In this document: positions 26,777 through 48,973 of the stretch, piece by piece
How positions within the stretch are numbered: the first letter of the stretch is position 1
Layout of the letters: each line of letters begins with the position of its first letter
Virus record (IMG/VR): IMGVR_UViG_3300016469_000277
Span: 44,308 to 108,307 of that record
Direction: 5' to 3' (one strand)
Length of the DNA stretch: 64,000 bases
DNA from: a virus
Program-made: the position numbers and the translations under genes
The notes under the pieces: generated by a model
The model's input: only the letters and a program-made list of their open reading frames with translations
Databases searched by the model: none
Told to the model about the DNA's origin: nothing

Positions 26777-27135
26777 TACTTTCTTTTGATTGGTTTTCTT
26801 CTTTTTGAGTTAGTTGTTTTGGGTTTTTTCCGTAAAGTTGCTGTTGATTTCTTTTTAGGTAACTCTGGTCTTGTCTCTGGTGCATAATTAGGTTCTTCTT
26901 TAGGACAATCTCTAAAAATAGTAGATTTACCTGCTTTAATTCTGCACATCAAAGGGGCTACAATACAAATGTCAAAAATAAAAATAACTAAAGCTAAGCA
27001 AATAGCCGAAGTACAGATAAATTGCCAAACTCCTGTATTATCAAGAGAGGTGTTAAGAACATACCCTACACCTAGTAGAGTAGCGATTGTTGCGAGGATT
27101 CTAATTCCCCACATTAAGATGTTATTTGGTATCAT
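26776..27135 (-). CDS. Two-TM membrane protein with basic C-terminal tail
   Basis: Two hydrophobic segments and a Lys/Arg-rich tail. Confidence 0.6.
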   Translation of the reverse strand: MIPNNILMWGIRILATIATLLGVGYVLNTSLDNTGVWQFICTSAICLALVIFIFDICIVAPLMCRIKAGKSTIFRDCPKEEPNYAPETRPELPKKKSTATLRKKPKTTNSKRRKPIKRK

Positions 27136-27203
27136 TGTTTTTAATTAGGTTAAAGTTAAAGTTCCCCCTCAGCACTACCTGGTCGGGGGAACTATGAAAC
27201 GCA

Positions 27204-27599
27204 TTAGTAAGGAAGCCTCCCTGCAATTTGTTTAGTTAAATCATTATACTTTAGAAGTATACGATTCATCCACAACAGTTTTGCATCAGATTTAAACTCT
27301 TTGATGAAGTTTTCAATCTGTTTAGCTTCTTCGAATTTAGCTTCAAAGCCATCTTTGTCTCCTTTCATTATAAGCTCAAAAGCTTCTTTTTTAAGTTGAC
27401 TAATCTGACTTTCCAGCTTAGAGAATGTCTCCCGAAGATTAAGTTCAATTGTTTCTTCAAGAGTCTTTACGAACAAAGAGGTATGTTTTGGAAGAACATA
27501 CTCATCTTGTACTCTTACAGGCTTCTCTTTAGGAGGTGTGTAAGAGCCTACTTTTTCTGCTGAATACAGCTTTCCGTTTTGTCTGAATGTCTTTTTCAT
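27204..27599 (-). CDS. Coiled-coil hypothetical protein (likely start MKKTFRQ)
   Basis: The ORF-track 5' extension overlaps a tRNA-like element and is probably spurious. Confidence 0.6.
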   Translation of the reverse strand: MKKTFRQNGKLYSAEKVGSYTPPKEKPVRVQDEYVLPKHTSLFVKTLEETIELNLRETFSKLESQISQLKKEAFELIMKGDKDGFEAKFEEAKQIENFIKEFKSDAKLLWMNRILLKYNDLTKQIAGRLPY

Positions 27600-27618
27600 A
27601 GTGTTTTTAATTAGTTTG

Positions 27619-27725
27619 TGCGAGTGACAGGATTCGAACCTGTACGTAGGACCTACAATTAGATGATCGGCTATCCTACAGTAGTGATGATAATACTTGC
27701 GTCTAACCAATTCCGCCACACTCGC
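27619..27725 (-). ncRNA. tRNA-Leu-like RNA with non-canonical anticodon arm and enlarged variable arm (107 nt)
   Basis: Acceptor GCGAGTG/CACTCGC+A; D arm TGGCGGAATTGGTTAGACGC; T arm ACAGGTTCGAATCCTGT; anticodon stem AGTA/TACT with a 10-nt loop; variable stem GTAGGA/TCCTAC. Confidence 0.75.
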
Positions 27726-27807
27726 ATTTTTCTCCTTATAAACCCTTCCGGTGCACCGAACAAGAAACTGGGGAGAAGTTGTTTCTACTTTTAATTTTAA
27801 CTTAAGT

Positions 27808-28104
27808 TTAATCTGATTCTCTTCCTGAATAGATAATAGTATCTGAATAAATATCTAGCCAGTAGTCAATAAATCCGTCATGCTTTAGATAATAAACTCT
27901 GTCAAATTTAGGTTTCTTAAGACATAAAAGAATGTGAGAGTCTAATTTGAACACACAATGATTGATACAAGTATCGTGATCTAGAATGTGCGCTACAAAA
28001 GAAGAATCAAACTTTGTTAAAGGAGGAAAGTCCGAATGCACATTTAACTGTACATCCGGACTCTTACAAGCAAAAAATAGAGGGATAAGGATTAAAAGTC
28101 TCAT
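27808..28104 (-). CDS. Putative lipoprotein
   Basis: Short signal peptide with lipobox-like FFAC. Confidence 0.55.
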   Translation of the reverse strand: MRLLILIPLFFACKSPDVQLNVHSDFPPLTKFDSSFVAHILDHDTCINHCVFKLDSHILLCLKKPKFDRVYYLKHDGFIDYWLDIYSDTIIYSGRESD

Positions 28105-28451
28105 AATCCTAGCATTACTTCAACAACTTTTTTCTTTTCGTTACGATTAAGCTTTTTAATCATAGCCAAAATGATGTCTAGTTGTTGTTCTACTGACAAT
28201 TCTTGTTTAAGGTCTCTTCTTGCGTTCTTTTGATTTCCTAAAGTGGAAATTCCGCTAGAAGAAACTACAGTCATAACAGTTCCCTCATGTCTTAACTTAG
28301 AATAATAATAAGCTGAAATAGCCCCTACGGTTCTTTCAGGCATACTAACAGCTGCTTTCTCAAAAGCTGCTCTTAAATTGTTAGGATACTGCTTCACAGC
28401 AGACAAAACGATGTTCTGGTCTTCTCTAGACCAACTTAATCTAGTACTCAT
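28101..28451 (-). CDS. Myb/SANT-like HTH protein
   Basis: WS.ED...L......N...AF..AA....RT..A....Y pattern. Confidence 0.5.
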   Translation of the reverse strand: MSTRLSWSREDQNIVLSAVKQYPNNLRAAFEKAAVSMPERTVGAISAYYYSKLRHEGTVMTVVSSSGISTLGNQKNARRDLKQELSVEQQLDIILAMIKKLNRNEKKKVVEVMLGL

Positions 28452-28493
28452 AGTATTTTTTTCTTGGGTTTATTTTTTCTTGGTTTGTTTTAA

Positions 28494-28531
28494 TTAAAAA
28501 AATAAGGTAGTGAACTTAATCACTACCTTAT
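28494..28531 (-). terminator. Intrinsic terminator
   Basis: ATAAGGTAGTGA/TCACTACCTTAT hairpin plus T tract. Confidence 0.75.
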
Positions 28532-28680
28532 CATTGAAAATCACAGTACAATGTGATTTTTGTTGCTCTTTATTCTATTACCCTTTTATTTCAGAGCAAA
28601 CCTGCTTATCTATAGCGTCTCGCGTCCAAACGGTTATGGACCGTGGTGCCTTTATAAGATTTCAAGGGTACAGGTTTTTG

Positions 28681-28812
28681 TAGTCAGGACAGGATTCGAA
28701 CCTGTATGATGTACTGCTTCACTTCCAAAACGGTTGATTCCCTTGTATGGACGCATCGACACATCTCCTATTTAATCTTATAGTAGCGTCTAACCAATTC
28801 CGCCACCTGACT
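28681..28812 (-). ncRNA. tRNA-Leu-like RNA with non-canonical anticodon arm and very large variable arm (132 nt)
   Basis: Acceptor AGTCAGG/CCTGACT+A; D and T arms identical to the 27619 element; anticodon stem CTAT/ATAG with an 8-nt loop; variable stem GATGT/ACATC enclosing about 45 nt. Confidence 0.75.
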
Positions 28813-28985
28813 ATGTTTGCCTTTTAAAGTAGTTTAAACGACGTCAAAGTATTTGCAAAGGCTAACTAATACTTCTATCTCCTATACGATGAGAACGGAC
28901 TTAATCCGTGTTTTACGATCCTCTGGCCTAGAGGCTAGTTTCTTCTCTAAAGCAGCCTTTGCAAAGATAATAAAGTTTAGAAAAT

Positions 28986-29384
28986 TTACCAAATAAGATG
29001 CTTAACTATTTCTAGTACTTCTTCGTTAGGGATAGTTTGACAACCTACTTGAATTTTTCCTTTTTTGAAGGTTACTGTATAATCTCCTACGTTAACAATT
29101 GGAGGGGCTTTAAAAGAAGGATCTAACTCAAGAGAAATAATCTCTACTTTATTTTCTGTTAAGTTTACTGAGTTTCCCTTTCTAATACTCCAAGAATAAT
29201 CAAATCCTAATTTGTCATAACAGAGAGCTCCATTTTTTACGTTTTGACAAAGATAAATGTCTCCATCTTCTTTTTGGATTCTTCCTTCACACTCAACTTC
29301 TTCAATCTTAGCTTTGAATTTAGTACCTACTGGTACATTATCCCAATCAGGGATTAATACGGTTTTAAATAAGTTATTTTCCAT
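28986..29384 (-). CDS. Hypothetical protein
   Basis: ORF. Confidence 0.65.
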   Translation of the reverse strand: MENNLFKTVLIPDWDNVPVGTKFKAKIEEVECEGRIQKEDGDIYLCQNVKNGALCYDKLGFDYSWSIRKGNSVNLTENKVEIISLELDPSFKAPPIVNVGDYTVTFKKGKIQVGCQTIPNEEVLEIVKHLIW

Positions 29385-29406
29385 GGTTTTTTAGTTTAAT
29401 TTTTAG

Positions 29407-29482
29407 TAGCCGGAAGGGGAATCGAACCACCTATCTCCAAGATGAAATCTTGTTGTCCTAAAATCCATTAGACGATCCGGCC
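29407..29482 (-). tRNA. tRNA-Glu(UUC), CCA not encoded
   Basis: Acceptor GGCCGGA/TCCGGCT, D arm GTCTAATGG..AGGAC, anticodon loop ATTTCAT, T loop TTCGATT; one mismatch each in the anticodon and T stems. Confidence 0.8.
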
Positions 29483-29743
29483 ATTTTACCAAATTAGAAA
29501 CAGCGAAAACCGCCCAAAGTAAAAGAGTCAGTAAGTTTCTTTACAGAAGCTTTAGCTTTGTTAGCAATTACTCCTTCGCTTTCTCTTTTCTCTACTGTAG
29601 TAGTAGATTTCTGTGTTTGATACGTTGTCTTTTTCATAGTTTTTATAGTTTAGTTTTTCTTTTTCTTGATTTACGAACATCAACAGGTTTAGCCTCAAGA
29701 CAAAACCCTAAAATAAAAGCAGAAAGAATTAGGATTACGTAAG

Positions 29744-29974
29744 TCATAATCCTAATTCCTCGTACTCGTTAAATTCAATGTCTCTAATATCTGCTTCTAG
29801 GAAACATTTTTCAATATTTCCCATTACAGAATTAGATGGACTTGGTTTACCCTCGTTAAGTAACGATTCGTAGTGACTAATAATTTTAGAAACACTAACC
29901 CCATTGCGAACTGTGCCGTCAATGAGATTAGTGAATCTAATTTTAGTTTTTTCAAGAGCTTCAGTCTTTGTCAT
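29744..29974 (-). CDS. Hypothetical protein (likely start MTKTEAL)
   Basis: ORF tiling. Confidence 0.5.
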   Translation of the reverse strand: MTKTEALEKTKIRFTNLIDGTVRNGVSVSKIISHYESLLNEGKPSPSNSVMGNIEKCFLEADIRDIEFNEYEELGL

Positions 29975-30773
29975 TTGGTTCCTCCTCGCAAAGATTATCT
30001 TTAGCAAACTCATATTCTTCCATAACAGATTTAAAGCGATAATTTCTGCCAAATCTTTCTTTACGGTCATTATCCCAGTAATAATCAATAGCAAGAATCT
30101 TATCAAGCAAACTCAAATGATAAATTTGTGATCCTTCTAACTTTTTTATTTCTATAAAAGGAGGACCATAAGTAAACATACCTGTTTGTGCTTGGTCAAT
30201 ACGAACTTCATAACCTTGCGACAAAGACTCTATTATTTCGTCTTTAAGCAATAGAAAGTATTTACGATATTCATCTTCATAACTTTCTTTTAGTTCATAA
30301 AACATACTTTCTATTGCTTCTTCTTGTAATTTATAAAGAATGTTACGATCTTTAGAAAGTAAATCAGCAACAGAAGTGTAAACTTTAGGATTACTACTGA
30401 ATTGACTATCCACTAAAAAGTATATTTTAGCACTGATTGGATAACTTTCTTCTGTAGAGTAATCATATTCACTTCCTTCATAAGTATAGATACCAAGCTC
30501 AAAACTTTTATCAATTGAGCTATTAAATGTACTGTCAGTTAGTTCAATAGTATCAATATACTTAATGTCGTGATCGGGATAAGCAAGTATTTTTGCTTTT
30601 TCTTGTTCAATCTCTTCATACCTAGGACTACCTGGTTTGTAGTCATTTGAAAAAAGACGATGAACTTGTTTTTTTTGATGATACTCTGTTACAATTTCTG
30701 CAAAAGAGTCAGAAGCTTGTGTAGTTAGGATATTATCCAACACAAAAATGTTTTTTAGTTTTATTTTTCTCAT
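29961..30773 (-). CDS. Hypothetical protein
   Basis: Long ORF. Confidence 0.65.
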   Translation of the reverse strand: MRKIKLKNIFVLDNILTTQASDSFAEIVTEYHQKKQVHRLFSNDYKPGSPRYEEIEQEKAKILAYPDHDIKYIDTIELTDSTFNSSIDKSFELGIYTYEGSEYDYSTEESYPISAKIYFLVDSQFSSNPKVYTSVADLLSKDRNILYKLQEEAIESMFYELKESYEDEYRKYFLLLKDEIIESLSQGYEVRIDQAQTGMFTYGPPFIEIKKLEGSQIYHLSLLDKILAIDYYWDNDRKERFGRNYRFKSVMEEYEFAKDNLCEEEPNDKD

Positions 30774-30812
30774 AGTTTTAGTTTAGTTTAAGTTTAAGAA
30801 AAGAGAGCCCTA

Positions 30813-31118
30813 TTACAGGCTCTCATTTACGTCTTCCGCTGTATAATAGTGTTTACCAGAACGCCATTGATACCATTCGTATTCTTCGTAATTATAAAAT
30901 TGTTCATAATCACAAGTAATATCTTCAGGATCTTGAGAATAAAATTCTTCTTTTGTCATACTAGGAACAAAGACTTTATTTTTTTCATTCTCTTGTTCTA
31001 CGTAGACTTTAGCATCTTCTTCCCTAGCGAATACTTTGTAGAGATAAACACGATACTCTTCGTAAGGCAGTTCGTTATCATACCATACGAGGTAGACTTT
31101 TTTAACAGTATTTTCCAT
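30813..31118 (-). CDS. Hypothetical protein (KVYLV...VF..EE.AK.Y family)
   Basis: ORF immediately downstream of a twister ribozyme. Confidence 0.65.
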   Translation of the reverse strand: MENTVKKVYLVWYDNELPYEEYRVYLYKVFAREEDAKVYVEQENEKNKVFVPSMTKEEFYSQDPEDITCDYEQFYNYEEYEWYQWRSGKHYYTAEDVNESL

Positions 31119-31143
31119 AGTTTATACTTTTTAGTTTAGTTTA

Positions 31144-31290
31144 AAATTTACCCCTCTGCACTCAGTTGTAACTCCAGGTTTATACCCTGAGATTCAGACA
31201 TTACTACGCTGCAGTCTTTCTCTGCAGATGCTCGTATTCTTATTACAACTGTCAGCCCTTGGGAAGCTGAAGTGGTGCGTTAAAAAATTT
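31144..31290 (-). ncRNA. Twister ribozyme (type P1) with extended P5; predicted cleavage at 31282/31281
   Basis: UAA-CGCA-CC...UCAGC-UUCCCAAGG-GCUGA; P5 CAGUUGUAA/UUACAACUG; AGUGCA-GAGGG; T1 CCC/GGG and T2 CC/GG; one C-A mismatch in P2. Confidence 0.75.
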
Positions 31291-31533
31291 GAACCTGTAA
31301 ATAATAAACAGCAAGGTGTGGACTTTTACCACAGTTAAGGAAGTTTGCAATTCCTTTCACAACCTCATGTTAGGCTTGTACTTCTTGTACACCCTCGCCA
31401 TTTATTTTTATTATCCCTCTGCACTCAGTTGTAATAGATAGCCAGTAGTACTACAGTATGGGTTACATACTGTCCATTGCTGATTCCAACGCAGCATTAC
31501 CTGAAGTTGGCGGTCACTATCTGTTACAACTGC

Positions 31534-32067
31534 TCACCCTTGGTGAGTGTGCTGAGGAGTGTAGTACCACTTATATCCATAAGCGGTTTTACTACTATCT
31601 TTAGCTGCTTTTGACAAGCAGGTAGTTTTATAATTTAATTCTCTTTCTATGTCTTTCATACAAGACCACTCTTTGATAAATAACCCATCAAGAGTGTATT
31701 GGTATAGTTTTTTAGCTTTACCATGTTTAGCTCCAGAAAACATTTGAGAAAGTTTTTTCTTAGTTTCTTCAGTATGCTTAGGTCTATTTCCTCCTTTATT
31801 GAGATTAAGACCTTTGTTTTCATCTTTCCAATAGCATTTATAAAAAGCAATCCAATATTGCTCTCTTTCATCCGCTAAAGTGTCAGAAACCTCTTCTATT
31901 ATCTCACACACATGATTCGCAAAACCATATTTTTTCAAAGAGTTATGTAATCTATATTGAGTTCTACAATGTAGAATTTTATATAAATTCATTCTCTTTT
32001 TATAATCCTTTGTTTGCCCAATATATACCTTTCCTGTTGGACTTGTGATTTTGTATATTGTTATCAT
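31534..32067 (-). CDS. GIY-YIG homing endonuclease with NUMOD3 and NUMOD1-like DNA-binding modules
   Basis: TIYKIT...VYIGQT...R...E...N; KHTEETKKKLS; YQYTLDG.FIKEW...TAYGYKW; ATG 4 nt after TATATTTG (32072-32079). Confidence 0.9.
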   Translation of the reverse strand: MITIYKITSPTGKVYIGQTKDYKKRMNLYKILHCRTQYRLHNSLKKYGFANHVCEIIEEVSDTLADEREQYWIAFYKCYWKDENKGLNLNKGGNRPKHTEETKKKLSQMFSGAKHGKAKKLYQYTLDGLFIKEWSCMKDIERELNYKTTCLSKAAKDSSKTAYGYKWYYTPQHTHQG

Positions 32068-32137
32068 AATACAAATATACAAAATAATGCACCATTTCCC
32101 AAGGGCTTAGGAAAATAAATTTCTTTATCACCCTTGG
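31534..32137 (-). mobile_element. Free-standing endonuclease insertion bounded by a 10-bp direct repeat CCAAGGGTGA
   Basis: tcacccttgg at 31534-31543 and 32128-32137; removing 594 bp restores a continuous twister. Confidence 0.75.
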
Positions 32138-32322
32138 GAAACTGATTAACTAACAATATACAACAGAGGATTTTACAACTGCTGTTATTATTCTTCATTA
32201 ATCAGTGTGGTTTCACATCTTGACCCATCAAGCAGGGCAGCGACAAGAAGTCTTTATATCCACGTGAGTTATGGTGCATTAATAAATTGCTATTTAACGG
32301 ATAGCTCCGACAGAATCAGCTT

Positions 32323-32538
32323 TTATGTATAAGCATTAATAAAAGCGTATTGAATAAGTTTAAAGCCTTCAGTTTCTTTCATTTCATCACAAGGATGAAT
32401 GTAAGCATAACTTACGTTACTAAAAGCCCCGTGCCACACTGCTTTAACAAAGGCATCTCTACCAAATTCAGCAATGAAAACATTCATGGAGTTGATTTCT
32501 TCAACTGAAACCATTTCTCCTATACCTACTGTAAACAT
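32323..32538 (-). CDS. Hypothetical protein
   Basis: ORF. Confidence 0.55.
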   Translation of the reverse strand: MFTVGIGEMVSVEEINSMNVFIAEFGRDAFVKAVWHGAFSNVSYAYIHPCDEMKETEGFKLIQYAFINAYT

Positions 32539-32615
32539 AGTTTTTGATTGAAATTTCGTTTTTTCGCAAAGAAGGTTGTTCTCTCCCTACTAAGAGAGAG
32601 AGAAACAACCAATCT

Positions 32616-32849
32616 TCAACCTTCGTAACTTTGACTTTCAAATGAATTGAGTTCTGACTCATTTTGTAAATCAATTAGCTGTTGTAGTTTATTAGCAGGA
32701 AAACTAATATAATAATACTCAGCTTCAATTTCTTTTTTTGTTAATGCAACAGCGTATCTTTCAATAACTGTTGTACCTGTAGAGTAATTGATAAACTCTA
32801 CTGTAAAAGGATTATATCCTATTACGTTGTGTGAAATATTATTGCTCAT
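32616..32849 (-). CDS. Hypothetical protein
   Basis: ORF followed by a hairpin at about 32572-32612. Confidence 0.55.
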   Translation of the reverse strand: MSNNISHNVIGYNPFTVEFINYSTGTTVIERYAVALTKKEIEAEYYYISFPANKLQQLIDLQNESELNSFESQSYEG

Positions 32850-33079
32850 AGTTTATGTTGATTTTTAGTCGTTTTTGTTTGATAGCCAGTTTGTTCGGAA
32901 ATTTTTCACTTTTTTCAAAGGCAATTTTTTGAGAATTTTTGTAAGATGAGGAGGTAAAAACCGCCTTTTTTCTACAAATTTACCTATATTTTAGTAGATA
33001 AATCTCGAGTTGTCTCCGAAATTCCCGGGAAAACACCAACTCATCTCATACTTTTACTACAAATAAGAGAAAAAAGCAC

Positions 33080-33106
33080 AAAAAAGGGGGAAATTAATCC
33101 CCCTTT
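33080..33106 (-). terminator. Intrinsic terminator
   Basis: AAAGGGGGA/TCCCCCTTT hairpin plus T tract. Confidence 0.75.
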
Positions 33107-33109
33107 AAG

Positions 33110-33379
33110 TTAAAAGTTGATACTTTCTAGGACAAAACGCCTGTAAGTTATCTCATTTACTGTTCTTGGTTCTATTTCTCTAATAGTAATTGTCTCTGCT
33201 TGTTTAAGTTGAAACATATCACTAATGGGAAACTGTGCTTTACTGCCAATAATAATCTTTTCGGATTTACCGTCAAAGTCTACTGTGATAGCAGCGTAGT
33301 CACGAACATAGGTGAAACCTTTTACAGGCTTTGTGAAGGTGGCGTTAGCCACGATAGCGGATTTAGTTGTAGTGCTCAT
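33110..33379 (-). CDS. Small beta-rich hypothetical protein (likely start MSTTTK)
   Basis: ORF between a conserved upstream motif and a terminator. Confidence 0.65.
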   Translation of the reverse strand: MSTTTKSAIVANATFTKPVKGFTYVRDYAAITVDFDGKSEKIIIGSKAQFPISDMFQLKQAETITIREIEPRTVNEITYRRFVLESINF

Positions 33380-33410
33380 TGTATTTAGTTTTAATGCCAC
33401 ATTAGGCACT

Positions 33411-33427
33411 ACCAACAAAGGGGCATT
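33411..33427 (-). promoter_or_regulatory. Conserved 17-bp upstream motif, copy 1 (AATGCCCCTTTGTTGGT)
   Basis: 16 of 17 positions identical to 34792-34808; both precede small minus-strand genes. Confidence 0.5.
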
Positions 33428-33484
33428 CCTAAAAAAATACCCTACTACAACCTAATCTCTATCTAAGATAGACTTAACTTAAAG

Positions 33485-33543
33485 TTCTGTTTCGACCCTC
33501 AATTAGGTCATCATCAGCAGAGAGAATAACTCTCTGGACAGAA
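33485..33543 (-). ncRNA. Type III hammerhead ribozyme; cleavage after GUC at 33537/33536
   Basis: UUCUG-UC|CAGAGAG-UUAUU-CUCUCUG-CUGAUGA-U-GACC-UAAUUGAG-GGUC-GAAA-CAGAA. Confidence 0.9.
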
Positions 33544-33936
33544 ATTAAAACAAGCAGTAGATAAACTCTCGAAATATAGTGGCCACTATAAACGATACAA
33601 AGATATTTACAGATTTCTCAGGTCTGCTTTCTCTTTAACACAATTGAGAATGTGTTCGTACTTCTCTACTACTTGTTTTAATAGTATATATCAGGAATAT
33701 ACCAGCACCGCTGTTTTTGCTCGTAGTCTACAGCTTAACCACAAGCCCCTATCCTTTCCCCTATTTACTACATTCGGGAATACTTTCAGGTAATTTTTAA
33801 AGATTGCATGTTTTTGAATAACGCTTTTGTATTTGGTTAACTCATAAGCGTCGGATAGAAAGCAAAAGAGTTTGGTATGCAGTAATATACCATTCTCTCT
33901 CTTTACTACAAGGAATGCCTTCCATAGTAGTGCTTT

Positions 33937-33996
33937 TTTCTGTTTCGGGACTCGATTATCCCATCATCAGGTAGAACAAAAGTCCTACGACAGAAA
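33937..33996 (-). ncRNA. Type III hammerhead ribozyme; cleavage after GUC at 33989/33988
   Basis: UUUCUG-UC|GUAGGAC-UUUU-GUUCUAC-CUGAUGA-U-GGGA-UAAUCGAG-UCCC-GAAA-CAGAAA. Confidence 0.9.
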
Positions 33997-34002
33997 GGGA
34001 GA

Positions 34003-34332
34003 CTAAGCTCCCTGACTTTTAAGTTGGTAGAACGAATGACTTCTATACCTTTCTTCAAGATAGTTAAGTATTCTTTCTAGTATGGGTGCTTCTTCAGCCC
34101 ACATATCTGACTTGAGATAGTGGTCACGAAGTTCTTGCGAACCCAAGTCTTTACCACTGGCTATCTGAAAGCCAATAGTATCGAACCAATTAAATGCACC
34201 TTCTACATAGCCACCACCATATTTGGTTTCGTGAACAGGTACATTAAGCACTTCATTGCAGATATCTTCATCTAATTTGTTGAGAGATACTGCTTCGTTT
34301 GTTTCTTTACTGTATAGTTTAAAGCAAATCAT
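34003..34332 (-). CDS. Hypothetical protein
   Basis: ORF ending just upstream of a hammerhead. Confidence 0.65.
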   Translation of the reverse strand: MICFKLYSKETNEAVSLNKLDEDICNEVLNVPVHETKYGGGYVEGAFNWFDTIGFQIASGKDLGSQELRDHYLKSDMWAEEAPILERILNYLEERYRSHSFYQLKSQGA

Positions 34333-34411
34333 AGTTAAGTTAGTCTTTCAGATTATCCTGCTAACGGACAAGAGCAGTTTTGTTTTGAGAACCCAACAGA
34401 AACGAAACGAC

Positions 34412-34436
34412 GAAAAAGGGGGGTTGCCCCCCCTTG
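34412..34436 (-). terminator. Intrinsic terminator with GCAA tetraloop
   Basis: G-run/C-run hairpin plus T tract. Confidence 0.75.
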
Positions 34437-34439
34437 TCG

Positions 34440-34751
34440 TTAGAACATTGTGCTGAAGCGTGGGTAATCGCCCTTGGTTGTGGAGTTGATACCACGGAAG
34501 ATAAGGGTGATTTCCGAATTCTTGAACGAGAGAACTTCAGCAAGTGTGCCGTCAAGTAACGCATTGAAGCGAGTCTTGAATTTGGGACAATCGACATAGA
34601 TGCGACAGATTGGCTTACCATTGATAGGTGCCATAGGCTGCACATTGGTGATTGTGCCGTGGATGCACTCTTCGATGTTGATTTTTGCCAAGTCTTTGGC
34701 TTCAGTTGGTGCTTGCGTAGCAAGGCTTGCGATGTTGAATGTATTTGACAT
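34440..34751 (-). CDS. First gene of the left arm; small beta-rich protein (likely start MSNTFN)
   Basis: ORF with visibly higher GC than the genome and its own terminator. Confidence 0.65.
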   Translation of the reverse strand: MSNTFNIASLATQAPTEAKDLAKINIEECIHGTITNVQPMAPINGKPICRIYVDCPKFKTRFNALLDGTLAEVLSFKNSEITLIFRGINSTTKGDYPRFSTMF

Positions 34752-34791
34752 ATCTGTATTGTTTAAGGTACGGGGTACTGTCACCCGCGAA

Positions 34792-34808
34792 ACCAACAAG
34801 GGGGCATT
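34792..34808 (-). promoter_or_regulatory. Conserved 17-bp upstream motif, copy 2 (AATGCCCCCTTGTTGGT)
   Basis: Near-identical to 33411-33427. Confidence 0.5.
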
Positions 34809-34954
34809 GAAATAATAAACCCCTATTCCCCTATACATACCGGGGGTTTTAAAATTTGAAAAAATTTTAGACTTTAAAACTAGGAGGGGGGGGGTTCTAA
34901 AAAATTAAAAAATTGGGTGGGGGTGTTTTCTCAAGTACCCGTAGTAGAAAAGAC

Positions 34955-34984
34955 TTGTATAAATTTCAAAAAAATCTATCTTTG
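34955..34984 (+). promoter_or_regulatory. Bacteroidota sigma70 promoter TTG-N19-TATCTTTG
   Basis: Consensus -33/-7 boxes at the start of the right arm. Confidence 0.75.
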
Positions 34985-35000
34985 TGTAAATTGAGTCAAG

Positions 35001-46375: not shown

Positions 46376-47941
46376 ATGCCAAACATGAACATCCCACGCG
46401 TCAATGGCCGAATAGTCGCTAACGCTGGAACTGCTAGTTCTTACTATCAGAAGAATAAACTTGGAAAGTTTACTGATAAGAACTTTATTGAAACAATGCT
46501 TCGTACTTCCCCCGATCAGTACGACAAAGCTATGATTCGTCTTTTCACTGACACCCGTCTTTACTCAAACGACTTTGTTGATTTGGTGATGAACTCAGGT
46601 GCTCCTTTCGTTTCTAACGATCCTAACGGTGTTTTTACCTACAAGATTAAGAAAAGGGCTGAGCTTCCTAAAATCATGATTAACTTGGCTGACACCACTC
46701 CTAAGCCTGGTGTTGACGGTCAAACTTTTGAGTTGGTATTTGACAAAGAAATGTTCGCTGTTAATGATGTGATCTCTGCTCATCGTCGTGAACAGGAAGT
46801 TTTGATTCAGATTGTTTCTGATTTCGAACCTTATCAGAACTTCTTCAAATACACTTGTAAAGCTGTAGGTGAATCTACTGACTACGTTCACCAGCGTTTC
46901 TTGAGTGTTGGTACCGAATACTTCAAAATCGGTATGTTGTCAGGCGAATACACTACCAGCTGGTCTAGCCTTGGTGCTATTGACGGTAGCTTGGAAGTTG
47001 TAAACGACGTATTGCAACAGTACGGTATCGAACATACTATCACCGATTGGGCTGACGCTACCAAAATTGGTGTTAAGTATGACGCTGCTGGTAAGCCTAT
47101 CAACGACATCACTTACTACTCTATCGCTGAAATTGACATCAATGGCCAACCTATCAACGTAACAGTTGGTTGGGAACCTACCGTATCTAAATTGATGCGT
47201 ATGGAAATGATTCGCATGAAAGCTAACACTTTGATGTGGGGTCGTAAAGGTAACGGTGTAGATGAAAAAGGTCGTCCTGTACGTGCTAAAGCTGGTTTGT
47301 GGCAGCAATTGCACCTTGGTAACGTAATTTATTACGACAAAGGTCAATTCTCAATCAACTTGCTTCGTTCTGCAGTAGGTGACTTGTTCTACAACCGTGT
47401 ACGTATCGAAGATCGTCACGTTAAAATCTACACAAACCGTTCTGGTATGGAATTGGCTGCTACCGCTATGAAGAAAGACTTCAATGCTTCTGGCTTCACA
47501 GTGTTGGCTTCTGATTTCTTGGATAGCAAAGCTAACGGAGCAAACGGTAAAGACCGTCGCTTGAACCAGGGTTATGCTTTCCAATTCGACCACTTTATGA
47601 CAGTTGAAACTGGCTTGGTTGAATTCAAAGAACTCGAACAGTTGAACGAACATGCTACTTTCTTGGAACTTGGTCCTAACAAGAAAACTCCTCCGATCTA
47701 TATTATCCTTGATATTTCTGGCGAAGGTGGATCAAACATCCGCGAATGTAAGCTTGGCACTCGTCCTAACATGATGTACAAATACATTCCTGGTGCTACA
47801 GATTCTAGCATTGCTAAAATGTTTGGAAACTTGGCTACCTCGAAAGATCCGTATGATACTATCTTGATGAAAGACTGGGCTGGTATCTTCTTGGAAGATC
47901 CTACCAGGACTATCCTCATCAAAGAATATCCTCAGATCTAA
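46376..47941 (+). CDS. Major capsid protein (crAss-type)
   Basis: 521 aa, strong high-expression codon bias, synteny, C-terminal GIFLEDPTR. Confidence 0.85.
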   Translation: MPNMNIPRVNGRIVANAGTASSYYQKNKLGKFTDKNFIETMLRTSPDQYDKAMIRLFTDTRLYSNDFVDLVMNSGAPFVSNDPNGVFTYKIKKRAELPKIMINLADTTPKPGVDGQTFELVFDKEMFAVNDVISAHRREQEVLIQIVSDFEPYQNFFKYTCKAVGESTDYVHQRFLSVGTEYFKIGMLSGEYTTSWSSLGAIDGSLEVVNDVLQQYGIEHTITDWADATKIGVKYDAAGKPINDITYYSIAEIDINGQPINVTVGWEPTVSKLMRMEMIRMKANTLMWGRKGNGVDEKGRPVRAKAGLWQQLHLGNVIYYDKGQFSINLLRSAVGDLFYNRVRIEDRHVKIYTNRSGMELAATAMKKDFNASGFTVLASDFLDSKANGANGKDRRLNQGYAFQFDHFMTVETGLVEFKELEQLNEHATFLELGPNKKTPPIYIILDISGEGGSNIRECKLGTRPNMMYKYIPGATDSSIAKMFGNLATSKDPYDTILMKDWAGIFLEDPTRTILIKEYPQI

Positions 47942-47952
47942 TCAACCCTATA

Positions 47953-47985
47953 TTAGTGGGAGAGCTTAATTGACTCTCCCACTAA
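47953..47985 (+). terminator. Stable hairpin after the MCP
   Basis: TTAGTGGGAGAG/CTCTCCCACTAA; no U tract. Confidence 0.55.
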
Positions 47986-48016
47986 CTAATTAAACCAAAA
48001 ACAAAACCAAAAACCA

Positions 48017-48973
48017 ATGCCACGTTCTAGAAAACAAGAAAAAAGTCCTGTAGAAGGTTTGAAAATTATCAGACCCTACATGAAAAAACCTGCAAATGAC
48101 AGGACAATTGAATCAAGTCTGTATAAAAACGGACACGCTTTCATCCCTAATACTTTGAGAACATTTCTTCCCAAAGTAGACGCAAGAGGAGCTGTACGTA
48201 CAGGCTTAGACCCCGATGCAATTAAGATTAAAGCAATCTTTGATCCTGAGTTGCGTCAACAGGAGAAGGAAAGAATTGAATCCTTAAAGGCTTATTACGA
48301 GTCTATTTTAGGTGAAAGTTTGGACCCAACTGCAGAGTTCTTTAAAGAAGTAAAAGATCAAGGCTACGCTTTAGAAGACGGAGACAACGTATTCGATTTA
48401 GCTAATGCTCGTCAAGCAATCACTTACTACTGGTTGATGGAAACCGGAATGATTGCAAATAGTATTGACGAAATTGAGTCAGGTAAACTTGACCCAAGTA
48501 TCGTTAAATTTTATGTACATGACGAAGACATGGATGCTAAGTTGAAGTTTGAGAAGAAACGTAAGACCAACGAAGCTAGAGTACGTCTTGACCAAATGAG
48601 CCCAGTTGAGAGATCAAGAGTTGCTAAACTTTTAGGATTAGGTGTAAGCTTTAACACTAAGTCTGAAGATGTTTATAACATTCTTGACGACTACTTGAGT
48701 AAACCTGCAAGTCAACTTGGTCTAGATCCTATTGAGACATTTAACAAAACGGCCTCAATGTCTAGCGAACTCATTGAAATTAAGTCCTTTGTGATTGACT
48801 TAACCAGAGCAAATATCATCCGTCTAAAGGGTAGTATTGTAATGGAAGGTAATCAAGTTTGGGCTAAAACAGTAGAGGAATTTGAACTCTTCCTCTCAGA
48901 CAAAGCAAACAAGGAAGTCTACGACGCGTTCAAAGACAAACTTAAAAACAAAATAGCGATAGATAATATCTGA
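48017..48973 (+). CDS. Conserved crAss-like protein following the MCP
   Basis: Synteny; TGLD motif. Confidence 0.6.
   Translation: MPRSRKQEKSPVEGLKIIRPYMKKPANDRTIESSLYKNGHAFIPNTLRTFLPKVDARGAVRTGLDPDAIKIKAIFDPELRQQEKERIESLKAYYESILGESLDPTAEFFKEVKDQGYALEDGDNVFDLANARQAITYYWLMETGMIANSIDEIESGKLDPSIVKFYVHDEDMDAKLKFEKKRKTNEARVRLDQMSPVERSRVAKLLGLGVSFNTKSEDVYNILDDYLSKPASQLGLDPIETFNKTASMSSELIEIKSFVIDLTRANIIRLKGSIVMEGNQVWAKTVEEFELFLSDKANKEVYDAFKDKLKNKIAIDNI

Follow-up and report, generated by a model that had tools for sequence, protein, structure and literature searches.

Stable tRNA-like RNAs have been known from phage tRNA clusters since the 1970s. The nearest natural precedent for the elements described here is the pair rnaC and rnaD (species 1 and 2), located at the end of the tRNA cluster of phage T4, the function of which has been open for decades. 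Among engineered RNAs, the tRNA scaffold is reportedly the approach of Ponchon and Dardel. The mascRNA of MALAT1 is a tRNA-like processing signal, at which RNase P and RNase Z set the ends of neighbouring transcripts. In plant mitochondria, t-elements are tRNA-like folds that likewise recruit RNase P and RNase Z and set the ends of neighbouring transcripts (PMC1920247); the engineered tRNA scaffold has been used for recombinant RNA in Escherichia coli (PMC3753655, PMC3401473). In the current study, two tRNA-like elements, designated E1 and E2, were analysed in a 64,000 nt stretch of DNA (the window), which comprises bases 44308–108307 of an uncultured virus record of 108,307 bp (IMGVR_UViG_3300016469_000277), estimated to be 94% complete.

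Comparison with other loci indicates that the two elements belong to a family of RNAs which presents a larger and sharper phenomenon than the precedents: one leucine tRNA shell is kept better than the real tRNAs of the same phages, and it surrounds selected inserts common to unrelated phages. Full-text searches of the literature returned no description of this family. What is new in this window is the insert of E2, which is shared, almost unchanged, in at least five unrelated phage backgrounds. E1 and E2 may be natural tRNA-scaffolded small RNAs in which the insert is the effector, a reading to which we assign a probability of about 0.5.

Leucine tRNA-like shells and their phage family

E1 (107 nt, 27619–27725) and E2 (132 nt, 28681–28812) lie on the minus strand, as do all of their parts given below, and score 40.4 and 34.3 bits, respectively, against the Rfam tRNA model (RF00005; gathering cut-off 29 bits). 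Two tRNA-Leu-like elements had been placed here by a preliminary description of the window, and the sequence, the Rfam model and the predicted folds all bear this out. In E1, the 5' half of the shell (27699–27725) carries the acceptor strand, U8 and a leucine-type D arm with a 3 bp stem and a 12 nt loop containing G18G19, the exact D-arm word lying at 27699–27717. The 55 nt insert occupies 27644–27698, and the 3' half (27619–27643) comprises the T arm, with the exact T-arm word at 27627–27643, the acceptor strand and A73, at 27619. The corresponding parts of E2 are a 5' half at 28786–28812, with acceptor strand, U8 and D arm, an insert of 80 nt at 28706–28785, and a 3' half at 28681–28705, with T arm, acceptor strand and A73 (at 28681); both words are again exact. 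Alignment to the Rfam model leaves 46 nt of E1 and 68 nt of E2 unaligned in place of the anticodon region.

The D arms of the two elements are letter-identical, as are the T arms, and with the neighbouring bases that they share the identical runs extend to 21 and 19 nt. The window contains exactly two copies of the 19 nt D-arm word and exactly two of the 17 nt T-arm word; dinucleotide shuffles of the window gave means of 0.00 and 0.09 matches, respectively, and two matches were never reached. The acceptor stems, GCGAGUG in E1 and AGUCAGG in E2, differ at six of seven positions and each is paired at 7/7. In both elements U(−1) precedes the acceptor stem, and A73 and then C74 follow it. The shared arms, the unlike but perfectly paired acceptor stems and the discriminator A to which the preliminary description drew attention are thus present in E1 and E2.

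Structures of E1 and E2 are predicted minimum-energy folds. In these, the E1 insert forms a hairpin of 4 bp with a 10 nt loop (27680–27697), followed by a 34 nt arm (27646–27679), and the E2 insert forms a hairpin of 4 bp with an 8 nt loop that lacks U33 (28768–28783), followed by an irregular arm of ~58 nt (28708–28765). The folds therefore reproduce the 10 and 8 nt anticodon loops and the long variable arms described earlier. In E2, inspection by eye suggests a contact of the 8 nt loop with the apical loop through four complementary bases. The anticodon-like arm is 18 nt in both elements, one above the canonical length, and the long arm, which closes 2 nt short of the T stem, takes the place of the variable arm in leucine, serine and tyrosine tRNAs. 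Of the features of a canonical tRNA, the 7 bp acceptor stem, the discriminator, the D and T arms, G18G19 and U54U55C56 are present; neither E1 nor E2 has a 5 bp anticodon stem with a 7 nt loop, U33 and a purine at position 37.

Descent of E1 from a leucine tRNA is supported by its 5' 28 nt, which share 93% identity with tRNA-Leu genes annotated in cyanophages. Both elements hold the leucine elements of the E. coli set, namely A73, U8–A14, A15–U48, G18G19, the U55/C56 partners and an A in the 20a region, and E1 also has C2–G71, an antideterminant against SerRS. The anticodon and the variable arm are dispensable to LeuRS (PMC9976931, from which the identity set is taken), and that source describes leucylation of tRNA-Leu variants that lack the anticodon and variable arms, provided that A73 and the D/T-loop contacts remain intact. 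The preliminary description had argued that bacterial LeuRS relies mainly on A73 and the elbow rather than on the anticodon; this agrees with the source, and all of the elements that can be read from sequence are in place. The identity elements are kept and LeuRS can act without an anticodon or a variable arm, so E1 and E2 may be leucylated.

A search for the D-arm word, an oversized gap and the T-loop core identified 59 viral loci, the loci being fetched by the exact D-arm word and not by the acceptor. Across 104 distinct elements, the acceptor pairs are kept in 99–104, each position having four to eight kinds of pair, and the T-stem pairs in 103–104. This covariation in the acceptor and T stems supports the earlier proposal of selection on the fold, and it is the reverse of the random decay of stems in homologues that had been named as a contrary outcome. 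U8 is present in 104/104 elements, U48 in 102/104 and A73 in 82/104. The acceptor AGUCAGG, as in E2, is modal (70 of 104 shells) and that of E1 belongs to a minority, while the D-arm and T-arm words of both elements match the modal words of the family exactly; dozens of viral contigs share the shell of E2. Mean pairwise identity is 0.90 for the shells, a value inflated by collection with an exact D-arm word, 0.62–0.71 for real tRNAs in the same loci, which have 8–23 different acceptor stems per isotype, and 0.47 for the inserts.

The middles of these elements range from 34 to 133 nt and are unrelated between different members. In 45 of 94 real inserts, but in 15 of 282 shuffled ones, a helix stops exactly 2 nt short of the T stem. 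The shells lie within phage tRNA arrays on the tRNA strand, at one to three per genome and with different middles, and their flanks are as in the real tRNAs of the same loci (U(−1) in 83/103, C74 in 98/103). E1 and E2 have the conserved arms, U8, U48, A73, the paired acceptor, the oversized middle and the helix at the variable-arm position, and they are placed in phage DNA with a tRNA-Glu on the same strand, with U(−1) and with C74. From these features, both are assigned to a large RNA family that is restricted to phages. The 5' 27-mer of the E2 shell was present in just two of 185,579 species genomes, both matches being on contigs of Bacteroidota metagenome-assembled genomes (MAGs), one of which has a terminase beside the shell. 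Among cultured phage records none contained a whole element, and single halves matched real tRNA genes only. An origin of the shell in the host was considered and rejected, as none of 401 sampled Bacteroidota genomes yielded a gene of normal length in which both the D and the T arm match exactly.

The preliminary description had held that these RNAs are unable to decode and had expected undetermined or pseudo calls from tRNA finders. With default settings, ARAGORN calls neither E1 nor E2, its only call being the tRNA-Glu(UUC) at 29406–29482. When introns are allowed (-i), it returns 'tRNA-Asp(atc)' and 'tRNA-Ser(gga)' models with 25 and 50 nt introns, mismatched anticodon stems and non-leucine anticodons. 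Such models are uninformative, because they also arise when only the middles are shuffled, in 171/200 controls for E1 and 161/200 for E2; with 80–86% of controls giving these calls, the candidacy of E1 and E2 as intron-bearing tRNAs was rejected. A removable intron that yields a canonical 7 nt loop, which had been named as evidence to the contrary, is no commoner than in shuffled middles. The inserts measure only 55 and 80 nt, and no Rfam match besides tRNA was obtained at E ≤ 1 in 27000–35000, with no group I intron, when a self-splicing intron was sought. For hammerhead and twister ribozymes, Rfam gave no match across the whole window at the gathering score or, within 27000–35000, at E ≤ 1. 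The ARAGORN tmRNA search was negative for both elements, in which position 3–70 is G–C (E1) or U–A (E2), and there was no Rfam match to YrlA at either.

Across the family, a lenient test for a canonical anticodon arm was passed by 4 of 96 inserts, the sole convincing one being a real tRNA-Leu(UAG), and most members have no hairpin at the anticodon position. Given the absence of a default ARAGORN call, the rarity of a canonical-looking anticodon arm and the chance-level intron models, the earlier claim holds, and E1 and E2 are judged unable to decode. A separate observation concerns the member at L088 (636–730), which has an 8 nt loop, U33-CAAG-G37, in which ARAGORN reads a four-base anticodon. 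To judge from its sequence, this member may stand between a real tRNA-Leu(CAA) and the shells as an intermediate form, or it may read quadruplets.

Conservation and exchange of the inserts

A search with a 22-mer of the E2 insert led to six contigs, three from metagenomes and three viral (L225–L230), in which the 80 nt insert is identical to that of E2 at 78–80 of 80 positions and homology to the window is limited to the element itself. One of the metagenome contigs is 222.6 kb in length and carries the element inside an array of 14 tRNAs. When the element was masked, no DNA similarity was detected among the five backgrounds, that is, the window, L225, L226, L227 and the group L228–L230. Relative to E2, the insert differs at 0, 0, 2 and 1 of 80 nt in L225, L226, L227 and L228, respectively, and the shell at 5, 1, 4 and 1 of 52 nt; the shell changes fall in the length of the D loop, in T-loop bases and in acceptor pairs. 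Changes are thus rarer in the insert (3/320) than in the shell (11/208; Fisher P = 0.004, the copies not being independent). Between the syntenic relatives L228 and L229, identity in the upstream flank is down to 72.6%, whereas the element itself is unchanged over the 116 nt that can be compared, L229 ending inside the T stem.

These results do not support the earlier expectation that the anticodon and variable arms might vary freely among homologues. It is only when different family members are compared that the middles are unrelated; in true homologues of E2 the middle is nearly invariant. In E2, the anticodon-like hairpin and the long arm are, on these alignments, the best conserved part.

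Relatives of this phage were gathered through the terminase (60–68% identical). Two relatives, G001 and G002, have an identical 75 nt insert between different acceptor stems, AGUCAGG in G001 and ACCAAAG in G002; their homology spans the D arm to the T arm and then stops. Four more pairs of elements combine the same insert with different acceptors. Conversely, G002 and a further relative, G003, have near-identical tRNA-Glu genes and downstream flanks that are 96% identical, but they carry different elements, and the homology of G003 to G002 resumes 3 nt after the 3' end of the shell. Within insert classes, compensatory double changes are found in the insert helices, for example C–G to U–A. An RNA module of ~83 nt forms the insert of a shell in L054 (1039–1197) and also occurs free between two shells in L017 (11236–11318); it matches no Rfam family. 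These comparisons establish that inserts are under selection and have been exchanged between shells. As the E2 insert is near-invariant in unrelated phages and the same insert can stand between different acceptors, the E2 insert is interpreted as a selected, exchangeable module and not as a product of decay.

G002 also contains a second shell, of AGUCAAG type, in tandem upstream of the ACCAAAG shell (L203, oriented coordinates 1298–1445). Its D stem is mutated, and it falls below detection by the tRNA model at E ≤ 0.01. This second shell may be a decaying copy, or it may have been a donor in insert exchange.

Genomic setting and flanking signals

Proteins encoded in the window include a DNA polymerase, helicases, the large terminase, the portal and the major head protein. 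In the genome as a whole, the tRNA-type genes number three, a tRNA-Glu(UUC), E2 and E1, which cluster within 1.9 kb on the minus strand. Two-thirds of its tRNA-type genes are therefore shells. The tRNA-Glu(UUC) (29406–29482, minus strand; found by both ARAGORN and Rfam) lies 594 nt upstream of E2 and is the sole decoding tRNA of the genome. Taken with the U(−1) and C74 flanks, this arrangement demonstrates, at the level of sequence, that the shells are placed and flanked in the manner of tRNA genes. A tRNA-Glu(UUC) is likewise paired with one or two shells in relatives with terminases 60–68% identical to that of this phage, and contig L225, from a jumbo phage, has a tRNA-Glu(UUC) 460 nt ahead of its E2-type element.

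E2 lies in the middle of a protein-free unit of ~430 nt. On its 5' side, a non-coding leader (28813–28970, minus strand) starts at a candidate promoter box, TTATCTTTG (28962–28970), with 149 nt between the box and E2; the fold of this leader is unremarkable (z = −0.3). We take the box to resemble the −7 promoter element of Bacteroidota. The same box is situated 84–103 nt upstream of the shells in relatives G001–G003, but it occurs four times in the window against 1.8 expected, which is no enrichment. Since the box is positionally conserved in relatives yet not enriched in the window, it is retained only as a lead. On the 3' side, a non-coding trailer of 148 nt (28533–28680, minus strand) is moderately structured (fold z = −2.94, with 1 of 200 shuffles as good), and is followed, 148 nt downstream of E2, by a hairpin of 13 bp with a U run that resembles an intrinsic terminator (28501–28532, minus strand). 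From its modelled fold, the trailer may be a separate small RNA freed by 3' processing of E2. E1 is set differently, 82 nt past the stop codon of one small open reading frame (ORF) and 19 nt ahead of the next start codon on the same strand.

In G001 (L202), G002 (L203) and G003 (L205) there is a conserved leader ~100 nt upstream of the shells, which begins at the TTATCTTTG box and ends in a hairpin and U run abutting the first base of the shell. As modelled, this hairpin looks like a terminator or attenuator, or the leader may be a separate small RNA. Immediately upstream of the shell in L017 (11331–11353) and in G002 (L203, 1632–1653, minus strand), TTGACA is combined with a GCUCG/CGAGC hairpin, and a third copy of this motif is present in L052 (6385–6407).

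The ORFs that adjoin the shells in the window gave no informative Pfam or PHROG match, and a search for relatives through these small neighbouring ORFs yielded none. The 116 aa ORF between E1 and E2 (28101–28451, minus strand) has a sub-threshold match to a Myb-like DNA-binding domain (20.5 bits against a cut-off of 24.4), and no relatives of it were found among viral contigs. Elsewhere in the window, ARAGORN with introns allowed reports a 'tRNA-Stop(tta)' at 47616–48036 (minus strand) with a 324 nt intron and a poor stem. Most of it overlaps the ORF of the major head protein (46376–47941) on the opposite, plus strand, and because of this overlap and the poor stem the call is almost certainly spurious.

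Interpretation and comparison with known systems

Among the roles proposed in the preliminary description, that of a scaffold for cargo is favoured by the comparative data. The alignments demonstrate selection on the acceptor stem, the D and T arms and the elbow, with no retention of the anticodon arm. If E1 and E2 are tRNA-scaffolded small RNAs, the host would handle the shell as a tRNA precursor, with cleavage by RNase P between U(−1) and +1 and with trimming of the 3' end in the manner of tRNAs, together with addition of CCA. The outcome would be a stable, abundant and correctly folded RNA, possibly leucylated, from which the insert would be displayed on the anticodon/variable-arm side of the L shape and could act there, for example by binding a factor of host or phage origin. 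Phages would probably exchange inserts by recombining through the D and T arms, which are conserved.

A number of observations weigh against this reading. The near-identity of the E2 copies could in part reflect very recent horizontal spread rather than constraint, and no neighbouring protein homologue (E ≤ 1e-4) is shared across the flanks of the five E2 backgrounds. The folding energy of the E2 insert is no better than that of shuffles (z = −0.03), the same is true of family inserts overall (median z = −0.5), and no insert in the window or in 18 loci of other family members matches an Rfam family. The mode of collection, as stated above, flatters the conservation of the shell. Relatives of E1 were sought in viral contigs with its insert 22-mer and with a 27-mer of acceptor and D arm; both were absent, and selection on the E1 insert is unproven. 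For E1, only the argument from the shell applies, together with an insert that folds better than shuffled inserts (z = −3.0). Possible antisense or guide matches of the inserts in their own genome extend to at most 12 nt (E1) and 15 nt (E2), within the range of shuffles. When the E2 insert was compared with 31 genomes from the family of a Flavobacterium MAG (G048), the matches were scattered, at chance level, and involved different segments and strands. An antisense or guide role for the inserts was rejected on both counts.

An alternative is that only the shell matters and that the middle is tolerated filler, the RNA acting as a tRNA mimic: a sponge or decoy for LeuRS, RNase P, the CCA enzyme or a defence system that senses or cuts tRNAs. 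This would account for a shell, AGUCAGG included, that is far more conserved than the real tRNAs of the same phages, and for inserts that are unrelated between members and not unusually stable. Defence directed at tRNAs is also plausible in the host range, as Cas13b systems of Bacteroidota hosts cut tRNA anticodon loops (PMC13692257). However, anticodon nucleases need the anticodon loop that E1 and E2 are missing, and filler would not be expected to show greater conservation than the shell in unrelated phages, to recur unaltered between different acceptor stems or to accumulate compensatory changes in its helices; we regard this explanation as unlikely. Somewhat less probable still is that the shells serve as processing punctuation in the manner of t-elements and mascRNA, with cuts at the shell that release or stabilize the mRNAs and non-coding RNAs on either side and leave the shell RNA as a by-product. 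The position of E1 between two closely spaced ORFs on its own strand would suit such a role, as would that of E2 within a protein-free unit with a structured trailer and a terminator, and the conserved RNA module between two shells in L017. Against this, large arrays already have cut sites from the flanking real tRNAs, RNase P needs no leucine-type D loop, A73 or conserved acceptor sequence, and a by-product would not hold an 80 nt insert invariant across unrelated phages.

The remaining explanations fare much worse. Selfish, miniature DNA elements with 8 bp inverted ends, spreading between phages and encoding a functionless RNA, could explain near-identical copies of E2 in at least five unrelated backgrounds, ends that form inverted repeats flanked by T and A, and close relatives, G002 and G003, that differ in their element and become homologous again just past its 3' end. 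Yet the 'inverted ends' are a covarying acceptor stem, the tRNA elbow nucleotides are kept in the interior, the elements are always on the tRNA strand in tRNA arrays at one to three copies per genome with different middles, and no transposase was found nearby in the neighbouring ORFs and flanks examined; this account is very improbable. Slightly less credible still is that the elements are real decoders, whether through a removable intron or through 8–10 nt loops used for quadruplet or frameshift reading. ARAGORN with introns does model both E1 and E2, both anticodon-like arms are a single nucleotide above canonical length and the loop in L088 has U33 and G37, but the models are as readily drawn from shuffled middles and have mismatched stems and non-leucine anticodons, the E2 loop lacks U33, no group I intron or ribozyme was detected and most members have no hairpin where the anticodon should be. 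Least probable of all, and already contradicted, is that the elements are decaying tRNA-Leu pseudogenes. The loss of the anticodon arm and the unrelated middles would agree with decay; stems kept with covariation in 104 elements, an insert conserved across unrelated phages and a genome in which two of the three tRNA-type genes are shells do not.

If E1 and E2 are indeed scaffolded small RNAs, a wider proposal can be offered tentatively, as one that we consider rather less than evenly probable. Bacteroidota phages and their relatives would run a plug-and-play small-RNA system, in which effector cassettes are traded via the D and T arms on a leucine tRNA chassis that is matured, and perhaps charged, by the host. 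The E2 insert would be one widely shared effector, for example an aptamer or a decoy against a host factor or defence. On the scaffold reading by itself, phages would have invented the tRNA-scaffold trick of biotechnologists, and there would be dozens to hundreds of natural small structured RNAs to consider, possibly with anti-defence or host-takeover functions, as well as a ready, host-compatible chassis for RNA expression in Bacteroidota. The family also has a consequence for annotation, in that tRNA finders pass over the shells or, when set to look for introns, wrongly report them as suppressor tRNAs or tRNAs with introns.

Comparison with the known systems shows partial likeness in each case. 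The t-elements and mascRNA are degenerate; neither an isotype identity set nor an insert is conserved in them. tmRNA and YrlA resemble E1 and E2 as non-decoding RNAs that join a tRNA-like domain to another functional domain. However, tmRNA needs G3–U70, pseudoknots and a tag frame, and E1 and E2 are without G3–U70 and negative in the tmRNA search; YrlA, unlike E1 and E2, bears its tRNA-like module at the closed end.

The stable RNAs rnaC and rnaD of T4 resemble E1 and E2 in that they do not decode, are of tRNA size or larger and have genes placed within a phage tRNA array, on the strand of the tRNAs. At its end, rnaC has a T arm and a partial acceptor-like helix, which rnaD lacks. Unlike E1 and E2, they have no leucine-type D arm and no common shell, and they show no homology to E1 and E2 by sequence or model; in the T4 locus (L224), neither RNA reaches the Rfam tRNA model, the only match being to tRNA-Sec (17.5 bits, E = 0.92).

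Two artificial systems are closer in design. Minimal tRNA-Leu substrates (Larkin et al., 2002, as summarized in PMC9976931) keep the same features as E1 and E2, but they are laboratory constructs used with E. coli LeuRS, and E1 and E2, which would meet a Bacteroidota LeuRS, are likened to them by sequence. The engineered tRNA scaffold comes closest as a functional analogue: in it, the anticodon region gives way to an RNA of interest and the chimera is processed and stabilized by the cell, an architecture that E1 and E2 share. That scaffold is man-made, whereas E1 and E2 are natural and phage-encoded, are built on a leucine chassis, with its long variable arm, and carry the insert largely at the variable-arm position.

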